Source of the DNA: Bacillota bacterium
GTDB taxonomy: Bacteria > Bacillota > Limnochordia > DTU087 > JAAYGB01
Direction of reading: 5' to 3'
DNA length: 64,000 bases
NCBI GenBank assembly: GCA_012727955.1
Contig: JAAYGB010000053.1
Coordinates: 589 to 64,588 of the forward strand
Shown: positions 7,972 to 55,241 of the stretch, piece after piece
Position numbering within the stretch: position 1 is the stretch's first letter
Layout of the letters: every line of letters begins with the position of its first letter
Notes under the pieces: model-generated
What the model saw: the letters and a program-made list of their open reading frames with translations, nothing else
The model's database searches: none
What the model was told of the DNA's origin: nothing
Position numbers and translations under genes: made by a program

Positions 7972-8700
7972 TTAGAATCTAAAGACTGCTCCCAGGTACA
8001 GGCCCGAGTAACTGAAGTCGACGGGATACCCATCGAAGTCCACGTCAAAGCTCTGGCACCGATACCCACCGGTGATTTCAAAGGCGCCCAAGTGATATCC
8101 CAATCCGATATCAAAGGCTGTGAAGGTGATATCGACTTCTTCGCCGTCGAAGGCTTCACCGGTGATGAAAGGCGAATATTTCACTTCACCCTTCAGGGTA
8201 ATTCCCTGAGCTATCGGCAGCTCACCGGAAGCGGTAAGATACAACCCGGAGAAGTCTAGGACATCCTCTGAGTAGCTAGCGTCCATAGGTACTACTGCAT
8301 AGGGGCCATAGTCCCCTGACCCTTCAGTGACACGATCATCCATTGCTCCTGTCAGGTAGCCGGCACCCACCTTAACTCCTGGAGCAACTAGATAGTCTGC
8401 TCCAAACTGCAGCCAGCCTAATTCCAGCGCTGAGTCTGAAAGCTCATAACCATCGGCTGTGAAATTATCGGTCTCCCCAAAACTGTAGGAAAGATTAACT
8501 CCAATCCTTTCTGTAGCCCTCAGTTCACCCTTGATGGTAGTCAGGTTGCCCGATGCTTCGGCAGACAATCCCTCTTCTTCGATTTCAGCGGTAGCAAACC
8601 ACCGATCAACACCCACACTCACTGTCTGAGCTGCAGCCCCAATCGCCAGTGTACACATTAACAAAACCACCAACCCTACACTCAAGACTGCCTTTTTCAC
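7972..8700 (-). CDS. outer-membrane beta-barrel protein (porin/OmpW-like), with signal peptide
   Basis: N-terminal signal peptide (MKKAVLSVGLVVLLMCTLAIGAAAQ), alternating amphipathic beta-strand pattern rich in G/Y/D, and a C-terminal aromatic Phe (..GAVFRF) typical of OMP beta-barrels. Confidence 0.6.
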   Translation of the reverse strand: MKKAVLSVGLVVLLMCTLAIGAAAQTVSVGVDRWFATAEIEEEGLSAEASGNLTTIKGELRATERIGVNLSYSFGETDNFTADGYELSDSALELGWLQFGADYLVAPGVKVGAGYLTGAMDDRVTEGSGDYGPYAVVPMDASYSEDVLDFSGLYLTASGELPIAQGITLKGEVKYSPFITGEAFDGEEVDITFTAFDIGLGYHLGAFEITGGYRCQSFDVDFDGYPVDFSYSGLYLGAVFRF

Positions 8701-21737: not shown

Positions 21738-22154
21738 CTATTTGGCTATGTTTAGTCCCTCGATTGCCGGGGCAGTCCGACTCTGCGGGTCCTTGCCCAA
21801 GGCCTCCCAGGTATCCCGCAACTCCTCTAACATTCCAATCACTTCATCGACAGGCTCTACTTCCTTCTGGATATTAGCCTGCACCAACCGCTGATCCATG
21901 TAGTCATACAACTGCCCCAGACTATCGGCAATTTCCCCACCGGCCTCCCGATTCAGGGAGAGACTCAACTCGGTAATGATGTCCTGGGCCTTAATCAAGG
22001 CACGATGAGCAGGCTCCACCTGCTTCTCCTCTAACGCAACTCGAGCTTGCTTCAGGAAGGTAATCGCGCCGTTGTAGAGCAGAATGATCAGCTCTAGACC
22101 CGAAGCTGTCGTGATTTGAGTCTGCCGATACGCTTGATAGGGATTGGGTTTCAT
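21738..22154 (-). CDS. fliS: flagellar export chaperone FliS
   Basis: NPYQAYRQTQITTAS N-terminus; 138 aa. Confidence 0.8.
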   Translation of the reverse strand: MKPNPYQAYRQTQITTASGLELIILLYNGAITFLKQARVALEEKQVEPAHRALIKAQDIITELSLSLNREAGGEIADSLGQLYDYMDQRLVQANIQKEVEPVDEVIGMLEELRDTWEALGKDPQSRTAPAIEGLNIAK

Positions 22155-22194: not shown

Positions 22195-22575
22195 TTAGGC
22201 TCTCTCATCGATAAACAATCCGATTAACTGATCAATCCTCCGGGATACCTCCAAAGCCGCCTCCGGCGGAATCTGTCGGATCACCTCTTGGGTTCTGGTA
22301 TCAATGACTTTCACCAGGAGTTGCTCCATCTCATGATCCAGTTCAAAACTCAGCCGCTTGTGGAAGGTATCCGCGGTCTCGTTGAGTCTTTTAATGACTT
22401 CCCGCACCTTGTCCAGATCTAGATAATACTCTGGATGCTCCAAATTCTCCCCGTTGACCTCTTCTGCCCGTTTTTCCGAGGCAGCCATCGTCTTACTGCG
22501 TTCGCTAATCGGTGAAACTGATGTCATGCGAGCTAATGGCTCAACTCCAACTCTAGTAACCTCCATGTAAGTCAT
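22195..22575 (-). CDS. flaG: flagellar protein FlaG
   Basis: C-terminal pattern ..VKVIDTRTQEVIRQIPPEAALEVSRRIDQLIGLFID typical of FlaG. The N-terminal boundary is uncertain. Confidence 0.65.
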   Translation of the reverse strand: MTYMEVTRVGVEPLARMTSVSPISERSKTMAASEKRAEEVNGENLEHPEYYLDLDKVREVIKRLNETADTFHKRLSFELDHEMEQLLVKVIDTRTQEVIRQIPPEAALEVSRRIDQLIGLFIDERA

Positions 22576-23913: not shown

Positions 23914-23990
23914 ATTTTCACTGAATCACAATCGGTGGGTTGTCTCCACCAACATCCTCTACTTACACACCGGACCCGGCTTTTCCTTGG

Positions 23991-24518
23991 CTACGGCCAG
24001 GGAAGGCCAAAATCTAGCCCGAAATCTCCCAGCACCACTAGGATTGCTCCTGCCGCCAAGAAGGGCCCATAGGGAATGGTGTCCCGCCGCTGCTTTCGCT
24101 TGGTTACCAACAACCAACCCCCCGCCAGACCTCCCAGCAAGGTCCCCAAGAGCAAGGCCGTCAGCGTCTGGCGCCAGCCTAGGAAGGCTCCGATGAGGCC
24201 CATCAGCTTGACATCGCCCCAACCGATGCCGCCCCGAGACACTGCCGCCAAGGTCCCCATGATGGTAACCGCCAAACTCCAGCCTCCCAGTCCACTCCAG
24301 AAAGAGGCTGTCAGCCACCAGCGGCAGGCCAGTCCCACCACCGTTCCCGAGAGGGTGAGGCGATTGGGCAGCAGACCGGTGCGCAGATCCTCCAGCGACA
24401 ATACCACCAGCCACGACAGCAACAGGGCATAGATGGCTGCCGCCGGTGTCATCCCATACCGCCACCGAACTGCCAACCACAACCCACAGTGCAACACCGC
24501 CACCGTCCACCGAGTCAT
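23991..24518 (-). CDS. short A24-family prepilin peptidase (TadV/CpaA-like, lacking the N-terminal Zn-finger/methyltransferase domains)
   Basis: 175 aa polytopic membrane protein with the conserved Asp-containing segments ..LSLEDLRTGLLPNRLTL.. and ..GGIGWGDVKLMGLIGAFLGW.. diagnostic of A24 peptidases. The overlapping 207-aa ORF in another frame is Gly/Ala-rich noise. Confidence 0.7.
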   Translation of the reverse strand: MTRWTVAVLHCGLWLAVRWRYGMTPAAAIYALLLSWLVVLSLEDLRTGLLPNRLTLSGTVVGLACRWWLTASFWSGLGGWSLAVTIMGTLAAVSRGGIGWGDVKLMGLIGAFLGWRQTLTALLLGTLLGGLAGGWLLVTKRKQRRDTIPYGPFLAAGAILVVLGDFGLDFGLPWP

Positions 24519-24591
24519 TAAGGCACCTCCACCACTCTGGGGACACAGCCGGAGTGAACCCTGGAGCTATATAGTTTTTCACATTGGGGGG

Positions 24592-26013: not shown

Positions 26014-27234
26014 CTACTTAAGCTCCTCGGCACTGATAAACACCAACAGCTCCCGATCACTGGAAGAATTTGCCGTGGACTTAAGAAGCCACCGGATCAC
26101 TGGAAGGCTCCCTAGGATGGGAACCTTGGCGTCCTTGGTCATGGTGTTTTCCACCGTCAATCCCGACAGGGCTACCACCTCACCGTCGGTGACCTTCAGG
26201 GTTGTTTGCACCTGGTTCTGATACACCGTTGGATCATCCTTCACTTCCGAAATGTGGCTGATCTCCGGGGCAATCTCCAGGAGAATCACTCCCCCTTCCA
26301 GGGCTGTAGGGGTAACCGTCAACCTGACCCCGGCCTCAACGCTTTGATAGCGATGGGTTCCATCGTCGGTTTGCCTGGTGACTAATCTGGTCTCGCCACT
26401 GAATAGAGAGGCTTGCTTACCCTCAGCAACTATGAGGGTGGGATCGGCGTGGATGGCCGCTTCATTTTTCTCCTCCAAAGCAGAAAAGAGGGCAACAATC
26501 CGCTCAAAGGGATCTCTGTATTCCAATCCTACCAAACCGCTTTGAAGCTGCAGCGATGTTGACCAGATCCGGTCCCACAGCCCCTCATCCTTAGAACCAG
26601 TTACCTCAAGGGAGTTGATCCCCCACTGCTGCAAGGTAGCGGTGGCCACCTCGGTGATCAGAGCTCGAATCCGGTATTGGGTGACGGGACGGGGCCGATC
26701 GATCTTGTCAATAAGGGCGGTGATCCGCTGGGCTATGTCCGGGGGAGCAGTCACCAACAGCAGCGATTCCTCCCGGGAAAAGCTGAGGTATTGATCGGCA
26801 TAGGCGGGAAGCAGCTCCCGGGCAGTAGCCGCGGAAATGTGTTTTAGCGAGATAACCCTGGTGTCCACTAGACTGGAAAAGGCCCGATTATAGGGATCGG
26901 GAAGACCAACCAGGTAGAAGTTGCCGTAGTTGCGATAGGCATACCCTCCCGGCAGACACAACATCTGAATAACAGTCTCTAGTGGAACCTGGTCGACGGT
27001 CAAGGTGACAAACCCCTGAACAGTCTCATCGACTAGGATATTGATACCCGTCTGCAGTGCCAGCTCATTGAAGGCCTCCCGCAAGTCCATCTCATAGAAC
27101 ATCACACTGACCAAGGGGGAGGTCATCGGCTCCTGGGCCCAGGAGGCTCCGGCGACCATCACCGCTGTTACCCCAAGGACTAAGAAGAAAATCCAGAAAA
27201 TCGAATTGTACAGAACTCGCAGTTGTTTCACCAT
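26014..27234 (-). CDS. short secretin (GspD/PilQ/RcpA family)
   Basis: Start at the internal ATG (MVKQLRVLYNSIFWIFFLVLGVTAVMVAGASWA signal peptide) with an AGGAG RBS 5 nt upstream. One secretin-N domain (DLREAFNELALQTGINILVDETVQGFVTLTVDQVPLE..). C-terminal secretin domain (..VTDGEVVALSGLTVENTMTKDAKVPILGSLPVIRWLLKS...RELLVFISAE). Confidence 0.8.
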   Translation of the reverse strand: MVKQLRVLYNSIFWIFFLVLGVTAVMVAGASWAQEPMTSPLVSVMFYEMDLREAFNELALQTGINILVDETVQGFVTLTVDQVPLETVIQMLCLPGGYAYRNYGNFYLVGLPDPYNRAFSSLVDTRVISLKHISAATARELLPAYADQYLSFSREESLLLVTAPPDIAQRITALIDKIDRPRPVTQYRIRALITEVATATLQQWGINSLEVTGSKDEGLWDRIWSTSLQLQSGLVGLEYRDPFERIVALFSALEEKNEAAIHADPTLIVAEGKQASLFSGETRLVTRQTDDGTHRYQSVEAGVRLTVTPTALEGGVILLEIAPEISHISEVKDDPTVYQNQVQTTLKVTDGEVVALSGLTVENTMTKDAKVPILGSLPVIRWLLKSTANSSSDRELLVFISAEELK

Positions 27235-27294
27235 CAATTCTCCTTGCCTACCCTCCATCTTCTTGGCAGGCTCATGTAGAGCTTTTGGAACAAA

Positions 27295-30121: not shown

Positions 30122-30442
30122 ATTGCTTGTCCTCCCTGGGAAATGCCTCACCCCATCGGTTTCACCCGTCCCGAAAATAGGTCTATCCGCATCCAGCTAG
30201 TCTGCTTAGCAAATTCACACCCATTGTATGATCCGCATCTCGTTTAAATCTCGATTTTGCCTTCTTCTTCCTGGAATTTCACCGGAAATGAAAATATGAA
30301 TGGCCAGTACTACTGGGACCACTACAAGGAAAGACCCAATAGTATCCAGAAAGATTCCAGAAGGATAAGATAGGTTAGATGATTCTGACTAAACTCGTTC
30401 CTACACTGCCCATTTGGCAAAACCTAAATTAGGAGGCTTTTC

Positions 30443-31438
30443 ATGGAATACAGGAGGTTAGGTAATTCCGATTTGATCGTTTCCCGTATCTGCATGGGAT
30501 GTATGGGCTTTGGCAGCCCAGCAGCAGGTCAACACAGCTGGACGCTGGGAGAAGAGGAAAGCCGGGAAATCATTAAGCGTGGGCTTGATCTAGGTGTGAA
30601 TTTCTTTGATACCGCGATTGTGTACCAGGGGGGTACCAGTGAGCAGTATCTTGGTAGGGCGTTGCGAGATTTTGCCCGGAGGGATGAGGTCGTTGTGGCC
30701 ACCAAATTCCCACCCCGCAGCCGGGAGCAAATCGCAGCGGGAATCGGTGGACAGAAACATATTGAAACTATGCTTAACCGAAGTCTAGAAAACCTCGGTA
30801 TGGATTACGTAGATTTATATATCTATCACATGTGGGACTTTCACACTCCCCTGTATGAGATTATGGAGGGCTTAAACAACGCAGTTAAATCCGGAAAAGC
30901 GCGTTATATCGGCATCTCTAATTGCTATGCCTATCAGCTGGCAAAGGCAAATGCTCTAGCGGAAAGGGAGGGCTTTCCGAAATTCGTGGCGGTGCAGGGA
31001 CACTACAATCTCATTTTCCGGGAAGAGGAACGGGAAATGGCCCTTCTCTGTGAGGAGGACAATATTGCAATGACTCCCTACAGCCCATTGGCCGGTGGGC
31101 GGCTGTCTAAGCATCCCGGTGAGACCTCCAAGCGGTTTGAGGAGGACTCCTACGCAAGGTCTAAGTATGACGCCACGGCAGAACAGGACGCGGTAATCAT
31201 CAGCCGGGTAGCAGAGCTAGCTGAAAGGCACGGCGTTTCCATGACGGAAGTAGCTCTGGCTTGGCTGTTGACAAAAACCACGTCTCCGGTGGTGGGAGTC
31301 ACCAAGGTGCATCATATTGAGGGTGCCGTCAAGGCCCTGGATCTGAAACTAACCGATGAGGAGCTTGCCTATTTGGAGGAACCCTATGTACCCCATAGAT
31401 TGGTGGGCGTTATGGCAGAGCTACGCCAGCAGCGGTAA
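30443..31438 (+). CDS. aldo/keto reductase
   Basis: MEYRRLGNSDLIVSRICMGCMGFG and the NFFDTA motif. AGGAGG RBS (aattaggaggcttttcATG). Confidence 0.85.
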   Translation: MEYRRLGNSDLIVSRICMGCMGFGSPAAGQHSWTLGEEESREIIKRGLDLGVNFFDTAIVYQGGTSEQYLGRALRDFARRDEVVVATKFPPRSREQIAAGIGGQKHIETMLNRSLENLGMDYVDLYIYHMWDFHTPLYEIMEGLNNAVKSGKARYIGISNCYAYQLAKANALAEREGFPKFVAVQGHYNLIFREEEREMALLCEEDNIAMTPYSPLAGGRLSKHPGETSKRFEEDSYARSKYDATAEQDAVIISRVAELAERHGVSMTEVALAWLLTKTTSPVVGVTKVHHIEGAVKALDLKLTDEELAYLEEPYVPHRLVGVMAELRQQR

Positions 31439-32570
31439 TCTCCTGCCACTGCAGAGTTGCAATGGTGCCAATCACCTTGGGAGAGAGCCAGCGTTGAATC
31501 CGCCGGGCAATAGCGCGGCGTTGGTCCAGGGATGTTCCATAGAGCAGGACGTAGAGGGTATCCAGTCTTCTGTGGGTGATGACATCCCCCCGCCTCAGTT
31601 CCTGCCTGAGGTTATCTACCAGTGTCTCCATATCTTGAGAGGCCAAAGGTTGGGCCATTTTCACCGTCAATAATATGGACTTTCCTTCCTGCCGGGACAA
31701 GCGACGAATCTCTACTTCACAAATACTGCGGAATACCTCATAGCGGCACACCATAGCCCCTGCTTCAATCTGTGCCGAACTCAGCAAATCCCTTAAGTCT
31801 CCACCTTGATCATCGAGATCCTCAACGATCTGTCTAACCCGAACCGACGGTGGAATCCCCAGCTCATCCTCCATTACCTTCTCATAGTGGCGATAAAGAT
31901 GAATGGCCTCACTCAGGTTATTTTGCGCTGCAAGGATCTCCAGTCCCAGTATGTAGAAATCCTCACGGAAGCGATCCTCGCCAATCCCCCTCTTGAGCTG
32001 TGTCAGGGCCCTGGCTGACTCTCCCTGCTGCTGCAGTATCCCAGCCAACCGCAGGAGCATGTCCAGGAACATGTCTCGATAGGTTTGCCGATGGGTTTCC
32101 GTCCAATCTTGATAAATGTCGCTGGGTAGTAAGGGCCCACGATAAGGCTCAATACCCCTTTCCAACAAGGAACGCTCTTCCTCGGGAGATTCCCAGGTTC
32201 TGAACTTGAACACCCGATGATAATGCTCTTCAAACTCTCTCCAGTCAAACCAGTACTGTTTTTGGGGATTTAGGCTGTATCGGGTAACCCCTTTGACGAT
32301 GTAGGTATCGGCACCGGGGACGTCGATGATGCTTCTCAAGCGATAGACGGTATCGTATAGACGCCTTTTGCCCTTTTCCTCATCGATTTCCGGCCACAGT
32401 ATCTCGATTAGGGTATCATCGGCCACGGCATGCCCAGGGTAAAGCAGCAAATACTTGAACATGTCCAGTGCCTTTTTCGATGTCCAGTCCTGTTCGGAGA
32501 GTACCCGGTTTCCGATTTCAACGCGAAATTGACCAAATCCGTAGACTTTGAGAAGGTTTTGGCCCTGCAA
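31410..32570 (-). CDS. SARP-family (OmpR-type winged helix + BTAD) transcriptional regulator with a C-terminal degenerate GGDEF-like segment
   Basis: N-terminus LKVYGFGQFRVEIGNRVLSEQDWTSKKALDMFKYLLLYPGHAVADDTLIEILWPE is a SARP/DnrI-type winged helix. The middle region is BTAD/TPR-like. The C-terminal ~110 aa (..SILLTVKM...RRGDVITHRRLDTLYVLLYGTSLDQRRAIARRIQ) aligns with the central part of GGDEF domains but has no GG(D/E)EF motif. Confidence 0.55.
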   Translation of the reverse strand: MQGQNLLKVYGFGQFRVEIGNRVLSEQDWTSKKALDMFKYLLLYPGHAVADDTLIEILWPEIDEEKGKRRLYDTVYRLRSIIDVPGADTYIVKGVTRYSLNPQKQYWFDWREFEEHYHRVFKFRTWESPEEERSLLERGIEPYRGPLLPSDIYQDWTETHRQTYRDMFLDMLLRLAGILQQQGESARALTQLKRGIGEDRFREDFYILGLEILAAQNNLSEAIHLYRHYEKVMEDELGIPPSVRVRQIVEDLDDQGGDLRDLLSSAQIEAGAMVCRYEVFRSICEVEIRRLSRQEGKSILLTVKMAQPLASQDMETLVDNLRQELRRGDVITHRRLDTLYVLLYGTSLDQRRAIARRIQRWLSPKVIGTIATLQWQEITAAGVALP

Positions 32571-32694
32571 ATTGCTCCCCTCCCGTTACCCCTTCGACCT
32601 AGTATGACTCCATCACGCCGGACAGTCCCTGTAAATCCTAAATAAAAAACTACCGCACCGCGGTAGTGGCAAATAATAGCAAGATAGAACTATA

Positions 32695-32952
32695 TCACTG
32701 TTCCTGTTCCCCGGAAGGGGATCTTCCCGGTAACAGTTCATCCAGCTGCTTAATGTCCAACTCCCGCTGGGCCAGGGCAGCTCGCCGATTTTCTGCTTGA
32801 ATCTCTCGGTATACCTCTTCGCGGTGAACTGTGATTGATCGGGGAGCATCTATTCCAATCTTGACTTGGTCGCCCCGCACCTCAACCACGATAATCTTTA
32901 CATCATCGCCAATAATAATGCTTTCATCGACCTTCCTGGTCAAAACTAACAT
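32695..32952 (-). CDS. csrA: carbon storage regulator CsrA
   Basis: [48 protein letters not shown]. Confidence 0.9.
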
Positions 32953-34071: not shown

Positions 34072-35004
34072 CTAACGGAGAAAGTCCATCAAAGTCGGTT
34101 GGATAATCCTTGCCCCCGAGCTCAATGCTAAGTAGTAGGCATTTTCTTCCATCTTCAGATTCATGATAGTCTCGGCTACATCAATATCCTGAACCTTAGA
34201 CAGTAAAGTTCGAGTGCTGAGCTCCAAATCCTTTAGCCTGGTGGCCGTTACTTCCAACCGCTTAACTTTGGCTCCGGCCTCCGAGCGACTGCGCAGGGCA
34301 TCGTCGATGGCCACATCAAATTGTGAAAGGGTGGCATTGACGTCACCATCTGCGTTGGTCAACGCGTGGTTCAACTGGAGCAAGGCACTCATGGCAGTGG
34401 TAAAGGCATCATCACCGCCGATACGAAAGTCCAAGGTAATCCCTACCCCAATCTCAATGCCAGAACCCTGGACCGAGGCAAGTTTGCCTAGGTAGGTGTC
34501 ATCAATTACGCCGTCGACACTGATCAGTTCTCTTTCCAGAAAGAGAATATTACCATCCTTATCCAACTGGAAGGGCGCCGTATCGGTTTTGGCATAACCG
34601 AACATATACTCATCGGCAAAGGTGCTGTTGCCGATCTGGATGACGTGGTCGAGAAGCTGTTGAACCTCATCGGCGATGGCCGCCCGGGCCCTTTCGTCCA
34701 AAGCCCCGTTACTACCCTGCACCGCTAATTCCCGACCCCGCTGGAGCACTTCTCCCAGTTCTGCCAATGCCGAGTCTGCGGTCTCTAAGTATCCGATTCC
34801 CCGATCCACATTGGATAGATGCTGCTCAATTTCCCTCCGGTTGGCAGTGTACTTGAGGACGTTGGTAATTCCTACGGGATCATCGGAGGGCCGCAGGATC
34901 TTCTTCCCCGAGGCCAGCTGCTCATTGGTTCTGCTTAACCGCCTGAGATTCCCCTGTAGGTTGCTCAGGGAATGGTTCACCAGCATTTTATTGGTAATTC
35001 GCAC
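34072..35004 (-). CDS. flgL: flagellar hook-associated protein FlgL (HAP3)
   Basis: MRITNKMLVNHSLSNLQGNLRRLSRTNEQLASGKKILRPSDDP N-terminus and the conserved C-terminal helix. GTG start after an AGGTGA RBS. Confidence 0.8.
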   Translation of the reverse strand: MRITNKMLVNHSLSNLQGNLRRLSRTNEQLASGKKILRPSDDPVGITNVLKYTANRREIEQHLSNVDRGIGYLETADSALAELGEVLQRGRELAVQGSNGALDERARAAIADEVQQLLDHVIQIGNSTFADEYMFGYAKTDTAPFQLDKDGNILFLERELISVDGVIDDTYLGKLASVQGSGIEIGVGITLDFRIGGDDAFTTAMSALLQLNHALTNADGDVNATLSQFDVAIDDALRSRSEAGAKVKRLEVTATRLKDLELSTRTLLSKVQDIDVAETIMNLKMEENAYYLALSSGARIIQPTLMDFLR

Positions 35005-35013
35005 CTAAATTCA

Positions 35014-35232
35014 CCTGCCTATTAATCCCATCCGATTGATAATCACATCTAAGATTTCATCCACCGCGGTTACTAGTCTCGCCGCAGCACTGTAAGCATG
35101 CTGATACTGAATCATGTGAGCGATTTCCTCATCCAGGGACACGCCGGAGACCGCTTCCTTTTGATTCTCCAGGTGCTCCATCAACACCCTTTGGTTATCG
35201 GAGATCCGAATGGCCTGCTGGGTATCGGCTCC
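35014..35232 (-). other. flgK: 73 in-frame codons that encode the conserved FlgK C-terminus, separated from the flgK ORF by a single TAG
   Basis: In the same frame, directly after the TAG at 35233-35235, the sequence reads GADTQQAIRISDNQRVLMEHLENQKEAVSGVSLDEEIAHMIQYQHAYSAAARLVTAVDEILDVIINRMGLIGR and then TGA, 6 nt before flgL. This is the canonical FlgK C-terminal D0 helix. Confidence 0.7.
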
Positions 35233-36465
35233 CTATTCTCCCATAATCCCAGCGTAGAAGTCCGAGGAAATGTTGGCAGTATGCTGCAAGTTGATGATCT
35301 CCAAAAGATTTTGGTTATCTCCCGGACCACTGTCGGGATCGGTGCCTCCCACCGTGGGAGCACTGGCAGCGGCAATGGCATCGAGACTATCAAGAATGTC
35401 CTTGGATAGAGTAATTACCTCCGCGGCACCCCGGGGATCGTCTTCGTCAATGACAAAGAAGTCGATAGGTTTTCGGCCCTCAATCCCATAGGTGTCGCCT
35501 AAGCCATATCCCTTGTTGTGAACCTCGTTAATCTCATGGGCTAGGGCTTTAGCGAAGTTATCCAGGTGTTCCTTATATTTGGGGATATAGTGGTCCCGCA
35601 GTTCCAGAAGGCCCTTGATGGCTCCATCGGTAATTTGCGGTGTAACCTCTCCCTGACCTTCCCACCGCAGCTGAGGCATCTCCCCTTGCTCGGTAGCGGG
35701 AATCACCTCTAGGCGACGAACCGTCGCATAGTCTACTAGGGTGCTGCCGCCGATGCTGATGGTAATGGAAGCGTTGGGCTGTTCCCGGACGCTGATGTTA
35801 GTGAGCTGACTTAGCTCGAAAATCAACTGGTCCCGTTGATCCAATAGGTCGTTGGGATTGTCCCCGGTAACCGAAATGGCCACAATTCGCTGGTTCAGAT
35901 CGGCAATTTGTTCGGCCAATTGGTTAACGGTGCCGATCTTTACCGCCAGCTCCGCGTTGAGCTCCTGCTGGTACTCACGGGTCTGCCGGGCTACGTGGTT
36001 GAAGGAATCCGTCAACAGCGCAGCACTTTGTCTGACCACTGCGCGAGCCGAGGCATCATCGGGGCGTTGGCTCAAGGTCTGCAGTGCCTGGAAGAACTCA
36101 TCTAAAGCCATACTGATCCCGCTCTCCGATGGCTCGTTGAAAATCATCTCCAGCTTTTCCAAGCCCGCCTGAATCGTTTGCCATTGGCCGGTGGTGGCGT
36201 TTTCCGTTCTCAGCTGGGTTTCTACGAACTGATCCCGCACCCGCTGGATCGCGCCTACTTGCACTCCCGTGCCAATTTGCCCCGGCGAAATTGGCCGATT
36301 CAGTCCCGGAACGGTATAGGGATTATTCGGTGTCAGCACTACCCTTTGCCGGGAATATCCCGGGGTATTGGCATTGGCGATGTTATGTCCGGTAATATCC
36401 AAACCCGCCTGTTGGGCTCTCATTCCGCTTAACCCAACGTAGATTCCTGAAAAGGTCGATCTCAT
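35233..36465 (-). CDS. flgK: flagellar hook-associated protein FlgK (HAP1), N-terminal 410 codons ending at an in-frame TAG
   Basis: MRSTFSGIYVGLSGMRAQQAGLDITGHNIANANTPGYSRQRVV N-terminus. The ORF stops at a TAG, although the conserved C-terminus continues in frame. Confidence 0.8.
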   Translation of the reverse strand: MRSTFSGIYVGLSGMRAQQAGLDITGHNIANANTPGYSRQRVVLTPNNPYTVPGLNRPISPGQIGTGVQVGAIQRVRDQFVETQLRTENATTGQWQTIQAGLEKLEMIFNEPSESGISMALDEFFQALQTLSQRPDDASARAVVRQSAALLTDSFNHVARQTREYQQELNAELAVKIGTVNQLAEQIADLNQRIVAISVTGDNPNDLLDQRDQLIFELSQLTNISVREQPNASITISIGGSTLVDYATVRRLEVIPATEQGEMPQLRWEGQGEVTPQITDGAIKGLLELRDHYIPKYKEHLDNFAKALAHEINEVHNKGYGLGDTYGIEGRKPIDFFVIDEDDPRGAAEVITLSKDILDSLDAIAAASAPTVGGTDPDSGPGDNQNLLEIINLQHTANISSDFYAGIMGE

Positions 36466-36538: not shown

Positions 36539-37084
36539 CTAGGCCTTGGCATCAAGTACACGGGCTGCAGTCTTCTGAACTCCCTTGCCCTCTCCCGGCT
36601 TTCCGTAGGTGGCAGCCTCTTCCTCTCCCCCGGTGAGAACTTCTAGGGAGAAGTTGACCAAGGCCAAGGAATGAAGCAACAGCCGATGGTTGAACTCCAT
36701 GGTCTCTTTTATCTCGGTAACTAGAGTAGTAAGTTGTGTTTGCAACTCCTCTAGCCTCTCATTCCAGGGCGCCGGAGCCAGGGAGATAAAATCCCCCAAG
36801 GTCAGCTCAATCCGTTGCCCTGTTAAGTCCGCCGCCTGCTGCTCCAAGGCGGTAATCAGTCGATGCCTTTGCTCTTCGATTCCTTCTAGCTCTTGGGCCT
36901 TAGCTGCCTCCTGCAGGGCAATCCTCTCCAGGGTAACGGGATCGTCCTGAGTAAGGGCTTCGGTTTTGGCCTGCCCCAGTTGCACTAGGTCTGCTAATAC
37001 CTCAACTTGTTGGGATAAAATATCAGCCAGTGTGGTATACACCTGGCTGTCCTTTGTTGTTGCTAAATGCCGATTATATTCCAT
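36539..37084 (-). CDS. flgN: flagellar protein FlgN-like chaperone
   Basis: Lies between flgM and flgK; 181 aa, helical and Q/E/L-rich. Confidence 0.6.
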   Translation of the reverse strand: MEYNRHLATTKDSQVYTTLADILSQQVEVLADLVQLGQAKTEALTQDDPVTLERIALQEAAKAQELEGIEEQRHRLITALEQQAADLTGQRIELTLGDFISLAPAPWNERLEELQTQLTTLVTEIKETMEFNHRLLLHSLALVNFSLEVLTGGEEEAATYGKPGEGKGVQKTAARVLDAKA

Positions 37085-37108: not shown

Positions 37109-37405
37109 TCAATTTCCTCTCTTAGCGGCAAGGAATTCCTCGACCATCTTTTCCGCCACTTTCTCCGCCGATACCTGGTAGGTTCCCGCCTGAATCCTTG
37201 CCTTCAACTGGGCTACCTTCTCTTCTCTCACTGTCGGCAACTGCGAAATATGCTGTTTCAGAGCCTGAATCCGTTTCCCTTCGGTGGACAAGTCCACGGA
37301 ATCTTTGCCCAAGGAAACTTGTCCCGGTTTTCCTCCGTACTCGATTTGTCTCTTGTGATACAGCTTGGCAATCCGGGAAACCTGTCCTGGCACAACCTTC
37401 ATCGA
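37109..37405 (-). CDS. flgM: anti-sigma-28 factor FlgM
   Basis: C-terminal pattern ..VREEKVAQLKARIQAGTYQVSAEKVAEKMVE. The ATG (MKVVPGQ) follows a GGTGA RBS; the longer ORF to 37453 lacks an RBS. Confidence 0.75.
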   Translation of the reverse strand, partial: SMKVVPGQVSRIAKLYHKRQIEYGGKPGQVSLGKDSVDLSTEGKRIQALKQHISQLPTVREEKVAQLKARIQAGTYQVSAEKVAEKMVEEFLAAKRGN

Positions 37406-37521
37406 AGTCACCTCATCAAAGCTTGTTGCTCGACCTATTAGTAGTATCGTCACCTTCTGGATCAGTCTTTAGCATAAAAGAAAAAACCCCGAAACCAACC
37501 TCCTGGCTTCGGGATAAGTAA

Positions 37522-48164: not shown

Positions 48165-49364
48165 TTATCTAATAGGTCCCCTCCCCCCTTTGAGAGGGAG
48201 CCGGATGTTAATCGTCGTACCTAATCCCGGCGAACTGTCGATGATGATTGTTCCCGTTAACAACTCTACCCGCTCGATCATCGAGATCAGTCCGTAGTGG
48301 TCACCATTTTGCTGGTGAGCCCTTACCTTGGTCACATCGAATCCGATGCCATTGTCACTGACCCTGATCTTTAATTCATTTCCACTTATTTCCACCGATA
48401 CCTGCACCACGGTAGCCTTGGCATGTTTGCGCACATTGTTGAGGGCCTCTTGCACTAGGCGAAAAACGGAAATCTCCAGGGTTTGAGGCAACCGCCCCTT
48501 CAGTCCAGACAGGGTAATGTTAGCCTGAATACCGGGTTCACTGTCGTTGAATCGCTCGATATATCGTCGTAGGGCCGGACCTAACCCTAGATCGTCTAGG
48601 GCCATGGGCCTTAGATCAAAGATGATGCGCCGAACTTCCCGCAGAGATATCTTCACCGCCTGGCGCAATTCCTCTAACTCTGCCAGCACCTGAGAGATTT
48701 CATTGCGCTCCAATAGTTTCTGGCAGATTTCCGAACGCAGGACAATGTTAGCCATCAGTTGAGCTGGCCCATCGTGAATTTCCCGAGCGATGCGCATTCT
48801 CTCTGCCTCCTGGGCCTCGGTCACGTGGGCAGCAATCTCCACCCGCTTCCGTAGATCCGAGACCTGCAAACTGGCAGCATCTCCACCCCCGGTCAAAATC
48901 TCTGCAGCCAATCCCACCTGGCCTACGGTACGTTCTGCCCGGCGCAGCAAACTCGCCAGATTCTGCAGGTCCTGCTCCAGTTGCCCTTGCCGCTGCCCCA
49001 GCATCCTCCCGATTTTTCTGGCCTCTTCCAGGGAGGCCTGAAGTTGAAGGGCATCCTGATAAGTCTGGACGAGGGCCGACCCTTGATTCTTACCGGGGTG
49101 GTCCTTCACATCGGTCAATGCCTCTTGGGTCCGCTGCCACTTCTCCTCCAAGGCAGCCATGTACTCAGCGTGATCCGACACCTGCTCCCTAATCTCTTTC
49201 ACTTGCTGCTGCAATTGGTCATACTCGGTCCTGGCGTTTTCCGCCAGAGAAAAGACCTGTTCCCGAACCTCCTGCAAGGTGCGGAAGGCAGTCTCCAACA
49301 GTTGATCAAGGGTTTCCCCAAAGATGTCCTTAGCGGATATGGATGTCACTTTCCTTTGGCCCAC
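48165..49364 (-). CDS. degS: cytoplasmic sensor histidine kinase DegS (HisKA_3 family)
   Basis: No transmembrane segments. The H-box region EAQEAERMRIAREIHDGPAQ and an HATPase domain are collinear with Bacillus DegS. Confidence 0.85.
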   Translation of the reverse strand: MGQRKVTSISAKDIFGETLDQLLETAFRTLQEVREQVFSLAENARTEYDQLQQQVKEIREQVSDHAEYMAALEEKWQRTQEALTDVKDHPGKNQGSALVQTYQDALQLQASLEEARKIGRMLGQRQGQLEQDLQNLASLLRRAERTVGQVGLAAEILTGGGDAASLQVSDLRKRVEIAAHVTEAQEAERMRIAREIHDGPAQLMANIVLRSEICQKLLERNEISQVLAELEELRQAVKISLREVRRIIFDLRPMALDDLGLGPALRRYIERFNDSEPGIQANITLSGLKGRLPQTLEISVFRLVQEALNNVRKHAKATVVQVSVEISGNELKIRVSDNGIGFDVTKVRAHQQNGDHYGLISMIERVELLTGTIIIDSSPGLGTTINIRLPLKGGRGPIR

Positions 49365-51483: not shown

Positions 51484-52330
51484 TAGAAACTCCCCTTCCT
51501 GATGTAAAAAAGTTAGTAAGACACGATACTACCCGGCAGCATTCCACCCTCTTCCCATCCCTTGACGCCCAGTGATGAATACCCCCGACAGGAGTATTTA
51601 CTAGGGGTAGCAACAAACTTCACAAACTGAGGCGAAGTTTGCCTACCACAAACACCTAGTCTAAACATTTAGTTCAAACACACCTAGATAATACCACAGG
51701 ATCTACTAGGTGTACATAGTCATTTTGTTCCAAGGATAAATGGAGTAGGAGGGGGTGGCTAACCCCAGTCCTCTCACACCACCGCTCATGCAGATCTCGC
51801 AAGCGGCGGTTCGCCTTCAGTAAACCTAACTTATGTCTTGCACAGTCTATCCTCGGTCACTAAGCGTTCTTATCCTTCGTCCTCGGTTTCCAACCTACTT
51901 TCAGATAAGCAACCTCGCCCGAGCAACTGCCGCCATCGAGTCCTTTCCTCCGCTGGCTTTCACCAGTTTCTACGGTACTACGACTCGAACTGACTTCTGC
52001 ATGTTCAGCTCCACCTTTCATATGGAGGTTACTAAGAGGCGAATATATCATCATCGCCTTGCAAAGCGTCCATACTGACCTTCCCCGTTAAGGCGTATAG
52101 TCTTTCGCTCCACCTATCTGCCACATTTGCACAGCATACCTTCGGATAGTTATCGGCTTCAGTTTGTTTGGCAACCTTACCCGGCATGCTGATTTCTGTC
52201 CGTTAGACCAGAGCTTTGCCTACGACTTCATGCAGATTCCTCCTCGCGAAGGACACCCTTGCCTTCAGCTATACACTTACCACTATCAGAACGTGTTCGA
52301 GACTTTCACCCGTTAGACTATACCCATCCG
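51484..52330 (-). other. ORF-free, lower-GC, strand-skewed region: candidate large structured ncRNA or remnant DNA (unclassified)
   Basis: No ORF of 90 codons or more in any frame across ~850 nt. The plus strand is pyrimidine-rich, so a minus-strand transcript would be purine-rich. GC is visibly below the window average. Repeated CACCTAG/CTAGGTG motifs sit at the 51650-51715 end. Confidence 0.3.
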
Positions 52331-52409: not shown

Positions 52410-53201
52410 TTAAAAAGCGGGAACTACAGCGCCGTCATAGTTGTTGAGAATGAACTCGCGCACAGCATCGCTTTGCAGTACTTCAGCCAGAACCCGAATT
52501 CCCTCACGGTCATCGCCCTGACGGACGGCAATTACGTTCACGTAGGGAGATTGACTATCTTCGATGAAGAGAGCATCCTCTGTGGGAACCAAATTAGCCT
52601 CTAGGGCGAAGTTGGTGTTGATAATGGCCAAGGCCACATCATCCAGGGACCGAGGAAGCTGAGGAGCCTCCAGTTCGACAAACCGCAACCGCAGGGGATT
52701 GTCGACAATATCAAAGACGGTAGCGGTAATTCCAGCTGCCGGATCCAGCTTGATCAGCCCTTTACTCTGCAACAGCAGCAGGGCTCGCCCGCCGTTGACC
52801 GCGTCGTTGGGAATGGCAATGGTGCTTCCGGATTTTAGATCATCAATGCTCTGCAGCTGCTTGGTATAGGCGCCCATGGGCTCAATATGAATCTTGGCGT
52901 TGTAAGTAATATTCAATCGGTGGCTAGCAGCAAAATCCTCAAGATAGGGAATGTGTTGGAAGAAGTTAGCATCCAGATCCCCATCATTAAGGGCTAGGTT
53001 AGGCTGCACATAGTCGGTAAACTCCACGACCTCCAGCTCATAGCCCCGCTCAGCCATCGCAGGTTTGATGAACTCCAGGATCTCGGCATGGGGTACCGGA
53101 GTGGCTCCCACCCTAACCCTTTCTGCGGCTGAGACTGCACCAATGGCAACTACAAAGACTAATGCGACCAAACTGAGAACTGTCAACACTCTAGTTTTCA
53201 C
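52410..53201 (-). CDS. metQ: methionine ABC transporter substrate-binding lipoprotein
   Basis: Signal peptide plus the NlpA/MetQ family pattern. Completes the metN-metI-metQ order. Confidence 0.85.
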   Translation of the reverse strand: MKTRVLTVLSLVALVFVVAIGAVSAAERVRVGATPVPHAEILEFIKPAMAERGYELEVVEFTDYVQPNLALNDGDLDANFFQHIPYLEDFAASHRLNITYNAKIHIEPMGAYTKQLQSIDDLKSGSTIAIPNDAVNGGRALLLLQSKGLIKLDPAAGITATVFDIVDNPLRLRFVELEAPQLPRSLDDVALAIINTNFALEANLVPTEDALFIEDSQSPYVNVIAVRQGDDREGIRVLAEVLQSDAVREFILNNYDGAVVPAF

Positions 53202-53253: not shown

Positions 53254-53910
53254 TCATTTGTGACTGAGCCGAGCTACGATGATATCCCCCACCATTTGCA
53301 GCAGCTGCACCAGTAACACCAACACCAGCACCGTCAAAAACATAATGTCCCCGCGAAAGCGCTGGTAGCCATAGCGAATTGCCAAGTCACCTAGGCCTCC
53401 ACCACCGACGGCACCGGCCATTGCCGAATAACCAATGAGGTTAATCGTTGTTAGAGTTACCCCTGCTGCCAGGGAAGGGCGGGCTTCCGGCAAGAGCACT
53501 TTGGTAATCACTTGCCAGGTAGAGGCTCCCATTGAAGCCGCTGCCTCCACTACTCCAGGGTCCACTTCATTGAGAGCGGTCTCAACCACCCGAGCAACAA
53601 AGGGAATTGCTGCCACAGTGAGGGGGACGGTGGCTGCCGCCGTGCCAATGGAGGTACCTACAACCATCCTAGTAAAGGGAATAATTGCCACTAACAGGAT
53701 AATGAAGGGGATGGATCTAGCAATATTCACTATCGCCGATAGCAATCGATTGAGCCAGGGATTCTCAGCGATTCCATCCTTGGCGGTAATCACCAAGATC
53801 ACTCCCAGGGGAATTCCGATTAACTCCGCCAAAGCCACGGATATTCCCACCATGTATACCGTTTCCTTGAGCGACTGAGTCAACATCTGCCAGACAATTG
53901 GACTAAGCAC
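53254..53910 (-). CDS. metI: methionine ABC transporter permease
   Basis: 218 aa with 5 transmembrane segments and the EAA-like permease motif region. Confidence 0.85.
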   Translation of the reverse strand: MLSPIVWQMLTQSLKETVYMVGISVALAELIGIPLGVILVITAKDGIAENPWLNRLLSAIVNIARSIPFIILLVAIIPFTRMVVGTSIGTAAATVPLTVAAIPFVARVVETALNEVDPGVVEAAASMGASTWQVITKVLLPEARPSLAAGVTLTTINLIGYSAMAGAVGGGGLGDLAIRYGYQRFRGDIMFLTVLVLVLLVQLLQMVGDIIVARLSHK

Positions 53911-54943
53911 CGTTGAGCACCTCCCATTCCAAACCCTGCTCCCGAAGTACTACCAGGGCCCGTTGTACGTCGTCGGCTTCGCCGGTAAGCTCCACCACCA
54001 AAGTGCCAAAGGGAGTTTCCCTGATGTGATCGATCTTACCAAAGAGGACGTTGGCGGTGACATTGCATTCTTTTACCAGGGTAGAAATCACCGGTTTGCC
54101 AGCGGAGGCGCCGATAAAGGAGATCTTGATTAAGATCCGCCCATCGCTGCCACCTTCCGAGGAGTTAACCCCCTTGGAGTTGATCAATTCTTCGGGGATT
54201 TTCAAGTCAATGACGCCGCGAATCAACCGCTTGGCAATCGCGGTCTTGGGAGCAGTAAATACGTCCAGCACCGACCCCAACTCCACGATTTGGCCGGATT
54301 CGATCACCGCGACCCGATCACAGATTTCTTTGATCACCTGCATCTCGTGGGTGATAATCACGATGGTCAAGTCCATCCGCCGATTGATATCCTGCAGCAA
54401 ATTCAGCACCGATTGGGTGGTCTCAGGATCTAAGGCAGAAGTGGCTTCGTCGCACAGCAGGACCTTGGGGTCGTTGGCTAAGGCTCTGGCAATGCCCACC
54501 CGCTGTTTCTGCCCGCCGCTTAACTCCGACGGATAAGCGTCGACCTTATCCGACAGCCCCACCAGCTCCAACAGCTCCAGGACCCGGGGACGGATTTCTG
54601 CCTTGGGCTTGCCGGCAATCTCCAAGGCAAAGGCCACATTGCCGTAGACCGTCCGGGAGCTAAGTAAATTAAAGTGCTGAAAGATCATCCCGATTTGCTT
54701 GCGGGCCTCCCGCAGCTCCTGCTTCGACAGGGCGGTCATATTAACACCATCGACGAAAACCTCACCCTGCTGGGGCCGCTCCAGTAAGTTCATACAACGG
54801 ACTAGGGTACTCTTGCCGGCCCCACTGAGACCGATAATCCCGAAGATCTCCCCTGCCCTAATTTCCAGGTCTACGTCCTGTAAGGCCGTCACCCGGTGCT
54901 TACCATCTGTAAAGACCTTAGTCAGGCCCTTAAGTTGAATCAA
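53903..54943 (-). CDS. metN: methionine ABC transporter ATP-binding protein (with C-terminal NIL domain)
   Basis: Walker A GLSGAGKST, LSGGQKQR signature, Walker B LLCDEATSALD. TTG start. Confidence 0.85.
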   Translation of the reverse strand: MIQLKGLTKVFTDGKHRVTALQDVDLEIRAGEIFGIIGLSGAGKSTLVRCMNLLERPQQGEVFVDGVNMTALSKQELREARKQIGMIFQHFNLLSSRTVYGNVAFALEIAGKPKAEIRPRVLELLELVGLSDKVDAYPSELSGGQKQRVGIARALANDPKVLLCDEATSALDPETTQSVLNLLQDINRRMDLTIVIITHEMQVIKEICDRVAVIESGQIVELGSVLDVFTAPKTAIAKRLIRGVIDLKIPEELINSKGVNSSEGGSDGRILIKISFIGASAGKPVISTLVKECNVTANVLFGKIDHIRETPFGTLVVELTGEADDVQRALVVLREQGLEWEVLNGA

Positions 54944-54993: not shown

Positions 54994-55032
54994 ATCAAGA
55001 ACGCACCACACAAAGCAGTACTATACCTTAAC

Positions 55033-55140
55033 CTCATCTCTCTGGGTAACCAGTCCTCCCAGCAGGAATTGGCACCTTGCGCTGCTTCAGCGCCGGTTGC
55101 CGGGTTTCATCGGGCCAGTCCCTCCACCTCTCTTGATGAG
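55033..55140 (-). ncRNA. SAM-I (S-box) riboswitch
   Basis: The minus strand reads CTCATCAAGAGAGGTGGAGGGACTGGCCCGATGAAACCCGGCAACC...GCAAGGTGCCAATTCCTGC...CAGAGAGATGAG, a near-consensus S-box with P1 closing CTCATC/GATGAG. Confidence 0.85.
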
Positions 55141-55241
55141 CTCTGCACTATATGTAGGCAGTGATTCCCAAATCAGGAATTTACCTTTGTAAGCACTAGT
55201 ATATACATATTCATAGGACCCGTCAACAGAAATTAATCGGA

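Follow-up and report, generated by a model that had tools for sequence, protein, structure and literature searches.

An in-frame TAG private to one assembly interrupts flgK of an uncultured digester Bacillota: probably a recent nonsense mutation, possibly a consensus error

The flgK gene in a 64,000-nucleotide stretch of a metagenome-assembled genome (MAG) of a Bacillota bacterium (the window; contig JAAYGB010000053.1 of 64,975 bp, positions 589 to 64,588) is interrupted by an in-frame TAG at codon 411. Judged against sister assemblies and homologues, the TAG arose from TTG by the change of one base and is a derived state private to this assembly. From the same comparisons we favour, with some reserve, a very recent genuine nonsense mutation (codon 411, TTG to TAG) in the strain or population. 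An error in the consensus or the assembly is possible but is the less probable reading, and programmed recoding or readthrough of the UAG is not supported by the sequence data.

On the minus strand, flgK has flgN and flgL as its neighbours in a late flagellar operon. It starts with an ATG at 36465 and runs through 410 sense codons (35236..36465), the TAG (35235..35233; protein context GIMGE*GADTQQ) and then 73 further sense codons that end with a TGA at 35013..35011 (3' part, 35011..35232), giving a total of 410 + 1 + 73 = 484 codons. The gap between the TGA and the GTG start of flgL (35004) is 6 nt, a spacing that suggests translational coupling. The first-pass annotation had described this arrangement, had called the full length of 484 aa normal for FlgK and had taken the tail for the C-terminal D0 helix; all of these descriptions are borne out. 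In a reconstruction of the 484-aa protein, Pfam places three domains in the expected order: Flg_bb_rod (PF00460) at residues 8–37 (E = 5e-10) and FlgK_D1 (PF22638) at residues 102–327 (E = 1e-66), both encoded by the 5' part of the gene, and Flg_bbr_C (PF06429) at residues 439–477, wholly downstream of codon 411. Searched alone, the 73-aa tail (the C-terminal D1/D0 helix) still matches Flg_bbr_C (E = 3e-12), and it aligns with the C-terminus of every FlgK homologue; thus, the open tail is not a chance open reading frame. The Flg_bbr_C domain and D0 helix are therefore encoded, but the 410-aa product lacks them, and only readthrough of the stop would restore them. In the NCBI record, the 410-aa piece is FlgK NLV92558.1, whilst the last 56 codons of the tail (35011–35181) are annotated as a hypothetical protein (NLV92557.1/GX030_09235).

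FlgK (HAP1) of Bacillus subtilis and of Bacillota in general has the same three domains in the same order, and the window protein is 40–62% identical to thousands of FlgKs. What sets it apart from them is the frame broken by the TAG, with an annotated product of 410 aa that has no C-terminal domain. The gene order of the window, comFA-comFC-yvyF-flgM-flgN-flgK-flgL-DUF6470-fliW-csrA, is that of the B. subtilis comF-yvyF-flgM-yvyG(flgN)-flgK-flgL-yviE-fliW-csrA cluster. The neighbours of flgK, all on the minus strand, are intact: flgL (34072..35004; 310 aa, NLV92556.1); flgN (36539..37084; 181 aa), which encodes the export chaperone for the FlgK C-terminal region that lies beyond the TAG; and the gene for the anti-sigma factor FlgM (37109..37453). 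Unlike the B. subtilis cluster, there is no flagellin gene after csrA in the window. In its place, in the region 31410–32952 (minus strand), comes a gene for a BTAD/Trans_reg_C regulator, and FlaG (22195–22575) and FliS (21738–22154) are encoded 10 kb off, with no fliD between them.

The ancestral state of codon 411 was read from close relatives, a comparison that the first-pass annotation had proposed. A look-up with FlgL retrieved near-identical contigs from three ENA assemblies of the same species (ERZ2648073 NODE_393, ERZ2647963 NODE_565/433 and ERZ2647865 NODE_116), which are 99.0–99.8% identical to the window. Codon 411 is TTG (Leu) in all three; the difference from the TAG of the window (35233..35235) is one T-to-A transversion at 35234. 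Codon 413 (35227..35229) is GTC (Val) in all three and GCC (Ala) in the window, which makes a second private change, T to C at 35228, 6 nt from the first. The corresponding protein fragments of the sister assemblies (P0125, P0127 and P0128) read GIMGELGVDTQQ around the site. The closest full-length FlgK relatives found among 5.8 billion proteins, 62% and 59% identical to the window protein, both have GELGVDT at this point. In an alignment of 113 FlgK homologues, column 411 is Leu, Ile or Val in 111 sequences (97, 11 and 3, respectively), Gly412 is invariant, and column 413 is Val (98) or Ile (15) in every sequence and never Ala. An in-frame TAG at codon 411 was found in none of the three conspecific assemblies and in none of the 113 homologues. 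Because the sister assemblies and the homologue columns all carry other residues, the window state is derived at both positions.

We also looked for a second copy of the TAG allele. A DNA pattern with N at both variable bases had no match in the JGI metagenomes and none in the GTDB genomes; exact look-ups of the 410-aa and 56-aa products returned no further copy of the locus; and a look-up with FlgN returned only the contig already known. Protein searches with segments around the site likewise gave no further copy and only the known cluster, although their silence is weak evidence since the index failed to return the window's own 410-aa protein. Against the GTDB representative genomes, the best match to FlgK was only 49% identical, with no conspecific genome, and the taxonomy that can be used from this search goes no further than uncultured Bacillota from digesters. 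The nearest FlgK relatives include MAGs of Halanaerobiales and Limnochordia. The window also encodes an OMP_b-brl outer-membrane beta-barrel protein (7972–8700, minus strand), a prepilin peptidase (Peptidase_A24; 23959–24582, minus strand) and a secretin (26014–27258, minus strand), which suggests that this Firmicutes-labelled MAG belongs to a diderm-type lineage of the Bacillota.

To place the two flgK changes against the background of the whole window, we compared it with all retrieved conspecific contigs and counted differences over the 33.9 kb for which two or more further assemblies could be compared. Over this length, private indels are absent from the window and its private substitutions number 17 (0.05%), comprising 13 transitions and 4 transversions, of which 6 are synonymous, 10 non-synonymous and 1 intergenic. 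Such a pattern resembles true divergence between strains, read from a clean consensus, and it favours a genuine nonsense mutation. The changes at codons 411 and 413 would then probably represent one multi-nucleotide event or a shared haplotype, given that the two are private, linked and only 6 nt apart. Four of the 17 substitutions (34485, 35764, 35234 and 35228) fall in the 2.4-kb flgK-flgL stretch, where ~1.2 would be expected; at the first of these, flgL codon 174 is AAA (Lys), against GAA (Glu) in all three sister assemblies. The excess hints weakly at relaxed constraint and is not significant alone.

The first-pass annotation had gone further and described the tail as perfectly conserved and showing no decay, and had counted functional readthrough among the readings that this favours. 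The open frame and the Flg_bbr_C match agree with the description, but the private Val413Ala change does not: it is non-conservative and sits in a column that is Val or Ile in 113 of 113 homologues. The step from lack of decay to function fails in any case, as the strains are only ~0.05% apart. With ~0.1 substitutions expected in the 219 nt of the tail, the absence of further decay is uninformative on function.

The strongest alternative is that flgK is intact in the organism (TTG, Leu411; GTC, Val413) and that both mismatches entered the assembly from faulty or minority reads at a place of thin coverage. We regard this as possible, though distinctly less so than a real mutation. Among 17 substitutions in 33.9 kb, only 0.05 pairs as close as 6 nt would be expected by chance, and close clustering is also typical of a low-quality read patch, as seen in the error-rich sister assemblies. 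Neither the TAG nor Ala413 was ever seen at its column among the homologues, the source is a MAG, and the exact pattern, product and segment searches placed the TAG allele in no second independent assembly. The other flagellar genes of the cluster are all intact and give no wider sign of motility loss, which speaks against a real knockout. Furthermore, stops and frameshifts confined to a single assembly do arise in the same genes, for example a private TCG-to-TAG change in flgM of the sister contig from ERZ2647963 (window-equivalent position 37245), and patchy clusters of indels occur across many unrelated genes in the sister assemblies. Set against this are the properties of the window itself: across the 33.9 kb there is no private indel, and the private substitutions are few, have a 13:4 transition bias and are partly synonymous, as in real strain divergence. 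From the way assembly methods work, a k-mer assembly would also need both changes together on the same used reads.

The quality of the sister contigs affects how their differences should be read. The ENA contigs (L002, L004 and L013; 50–104 kb) have k-mer coverages of 1.8–2.9x and carry 13–57 private deletions each, single-base deletions that occur in dense patches over unrelated genes. They look like gap-filled or hybrid assemblies and, being low-coverage and error-patched, their split genes should not be taken as pseudogenes. Despite these errors, the contigs of all three sister assemblies carry the same bases at both flgK sites, in line with the consensus of the family. Two other differences between the window and its relatives were seen. 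At 49205, the CAA of the window is TAA in two assemblies that come from separate studies (ERZ2647963 and ERZ18327520). This codon lies upstream of a HisKA_3 sensor kinase, in its frame, and the change gives the window an ORF of 399 aa against called products of 279–338 aa. We considered and rejected a kinase knockout (a reciprocal nonsense change), since shorter products are called elsewhere and the TAA is probably an upstream stop outside the true gene. At 30377–30396, in the divergent intergenic region between an aldo-keto reductase gene (plus strand) and a 305-aa ORF (minus strand), one sister assembly (contig L001, 10414–10462) has a 34-bp AT-rich insertion and several mismatches, possibly a minor structural difference within a promoter region.

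The first-pass annotation had left three explanations standing, namely a recent nonsense mutation, a sequencing or assembly error, and readthrough or suppression. The finding that the TAG is derived and private supports the first two; the third has fared badly. Recoding of UAG as pyrrolysine occurs in Bacillota such as Desulfitobacterium and Acetohalobium, where the sites are conserved among orthologues, typically lie in methylamine methyltransferases and need pylTSBCD. All that flgK shares with these cases is a UAG within a gene whose reading frame stays open beyond it. Unlike them, the UAG of the window is not conserved within the species, the ancestral residue is a Leu of the buried type, and the window has no pyl gene or tRNA. 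Were the TAG decoded nonetheless, by pyrrolysine, an amber-suppressor tRNA or a near-cognate tRNA, a 484-aa FlgK would be made, and a low level might suffice. Some relatives in this part of the Bacillota, including Thermincola and Desulfosporosinus, do carry pyl genes, and the frame downstream of the TAG is open and encodes a good Flg_bbr_C domain. Few copies of FlgK are needed, with 11 subunits per flagellum (PMC12221982). We nevertheless consider decoding of the TAG very unlikely. At 0.05% divergence, the frame beyond the TAG would be expected to be open in any case, and a stop shared by neither the three conspecific assemblies nor any of the 113 homologues does not mark a conserved recoding site.

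TAG is also an ordinary terminator in this DNA. It ends ~24 of 66 window ORFs (~36%; non-overlapping ORFs of at least 80 aa, with the flgK piece itself excluded), including the neighbouring flagellar genes flgL and flgN and also fliS. As UAG is neither rare nor absent as a terminator in the window, a genome-wide reassignment was rejected. No tRNA gene, with a CUA anticodon or any other, was found within the 64-kb window, and the Pfam content of the window genes includes no PylS, PylB, PylC, PylD or methylamine methyltransferase domain. An Rfam scan of the window found no recoding element, and around flgK there was nothing meaningful even at E ≤ 1. The 121 nt from the TAG onward fold no better than shuffled sequence (MFE z = -0.77). 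With neither a structure signal nor an Rfam match, a readthrough-stimulating RNA or known recoding element was also rejected. It is extremely unlikely that the TAG allele is real and that some full-length FlgK is still made by an amber-decoding tRNA encoded elsewhere or by near-cognate readthrough; were this so, the apparently knocked-out junction gene would stay leaky or conditionally functional.

The Rfam scan gave just two matches, a SAM riboswitch and a fragment of a group II intron, both away from flgK. The riboswitch (55031–55142, minus strand, 92 bits) lies upstream of a metN-metI-metQ-type ABC transporter operon (53903–54943, 53254–53910 and 52410–53201), an ordinary arrangement. The intron match covers domains D1–D4 (52092–52253, minus strand, 85 bits) between an FMN_bind gene and metQ; there is no reverse-transcriptase ORF and no D5–D6 match within ~600 nt downstream, and the intron looks ORF-less or truncated.

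A further possibility was that the TAG is one of several independent inactivations of flgM, flgK and flgL across the assemblies, reflecting parallel or ongoing decay of late flagellar genes. In a first three-way comparison of 10 kb, most private differences did fall in the flgK-flgL-DUF6470 stretch, and they included frameshifts in flgK and flgL and the stop in flgM. Over 8–60 kb, however, the private events of the sister assemblies are equally dense in patches on unrelated genes (e.g. in the bins at 16 kb and 28 kb), and in a 1.8x contig nearly every gene is broken. Moreover, their density of ~0.9% in patches, compared with a background of 0.05%, is too high for neutral decay. Patchy assembly error in the low-coverage ENA contigs fits instead, and parallel decay was rejected as highly improbable. 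A diversity-generating or phase-variation mechanism for the adjacent changes was also considered; the site has no repeat tract, and no reverse-transcriptase gene lies nearby.

If the nonsense mutation is genuine, translation would stop after FlgK residue 410. In Salmonella, FlgK forms an 11-subunit layer on the hook, with the D0 helices lining the central channel (PMC12221982), and the FlgN chaperone binds the disordered C-terminal region of both FlgK and FlgL (PMC8527033). The C-terminal part of the window FlgK can be aligned to Salmonella FlgK as seen in structures of the junction (PDB 9go6 and related entries), which puts residue 411 at approximately Val485 of the 553-aa Salmonella protein. 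A FlgK cut at residue 410 would have neither the C-terminal D0 helix that lines the channel at the hook-filament junction nor the disordered C-terminal region for its export chaperone FlgN. Judged by what Salmonella FlgK requires, the stop would thus remove a part needed for function. With the D0 helix and the FlgN-binding region both missing, the truncated protein would presumably be poorly exported and unable to polymerise, so that the filament would be absent and the cells non-motile. With translation ending 222 nt short of the flgL start, coupled translation of flgL may be reduced as well.

Comparable knockouts are on record: flgK is a pseudogene in the non-flagellate Salmonella Gallinarum/Pullorum (PMC3598799), and mutations in flagellar genes, including flgK, readily arise in long-term cultures of Vibrio cholerae (PMC10654082). 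The window resembles these cases in having one inactivating mutation in a late flagellar structural gene, in an otherwise intact cluster and in one lineage. It differs from them in that it is known from a single MAG consensus, and in that the mutation is much younger (~0.05% divergence from the intact allele).

That one mutation can inactivate flgK or another flagellar gene is already well known, and the flgK TAG matters mainly for annotation. Should the TAG be an artefact, an unbroken flgK stands in the NCBI record as two products, a 410-aa 'FlgK' and a 56-aa 'hypothetical protein'. Real or artefact, it is no evidence for stop-codon recoding, and one near-identical sister assembly suffices to settle in-frame-stop flags of this kind. 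If the mutation is real, this strain of an uncultured digester Bacillota is probably non-flagellate, having lost motility through the knockout of a single late gene.
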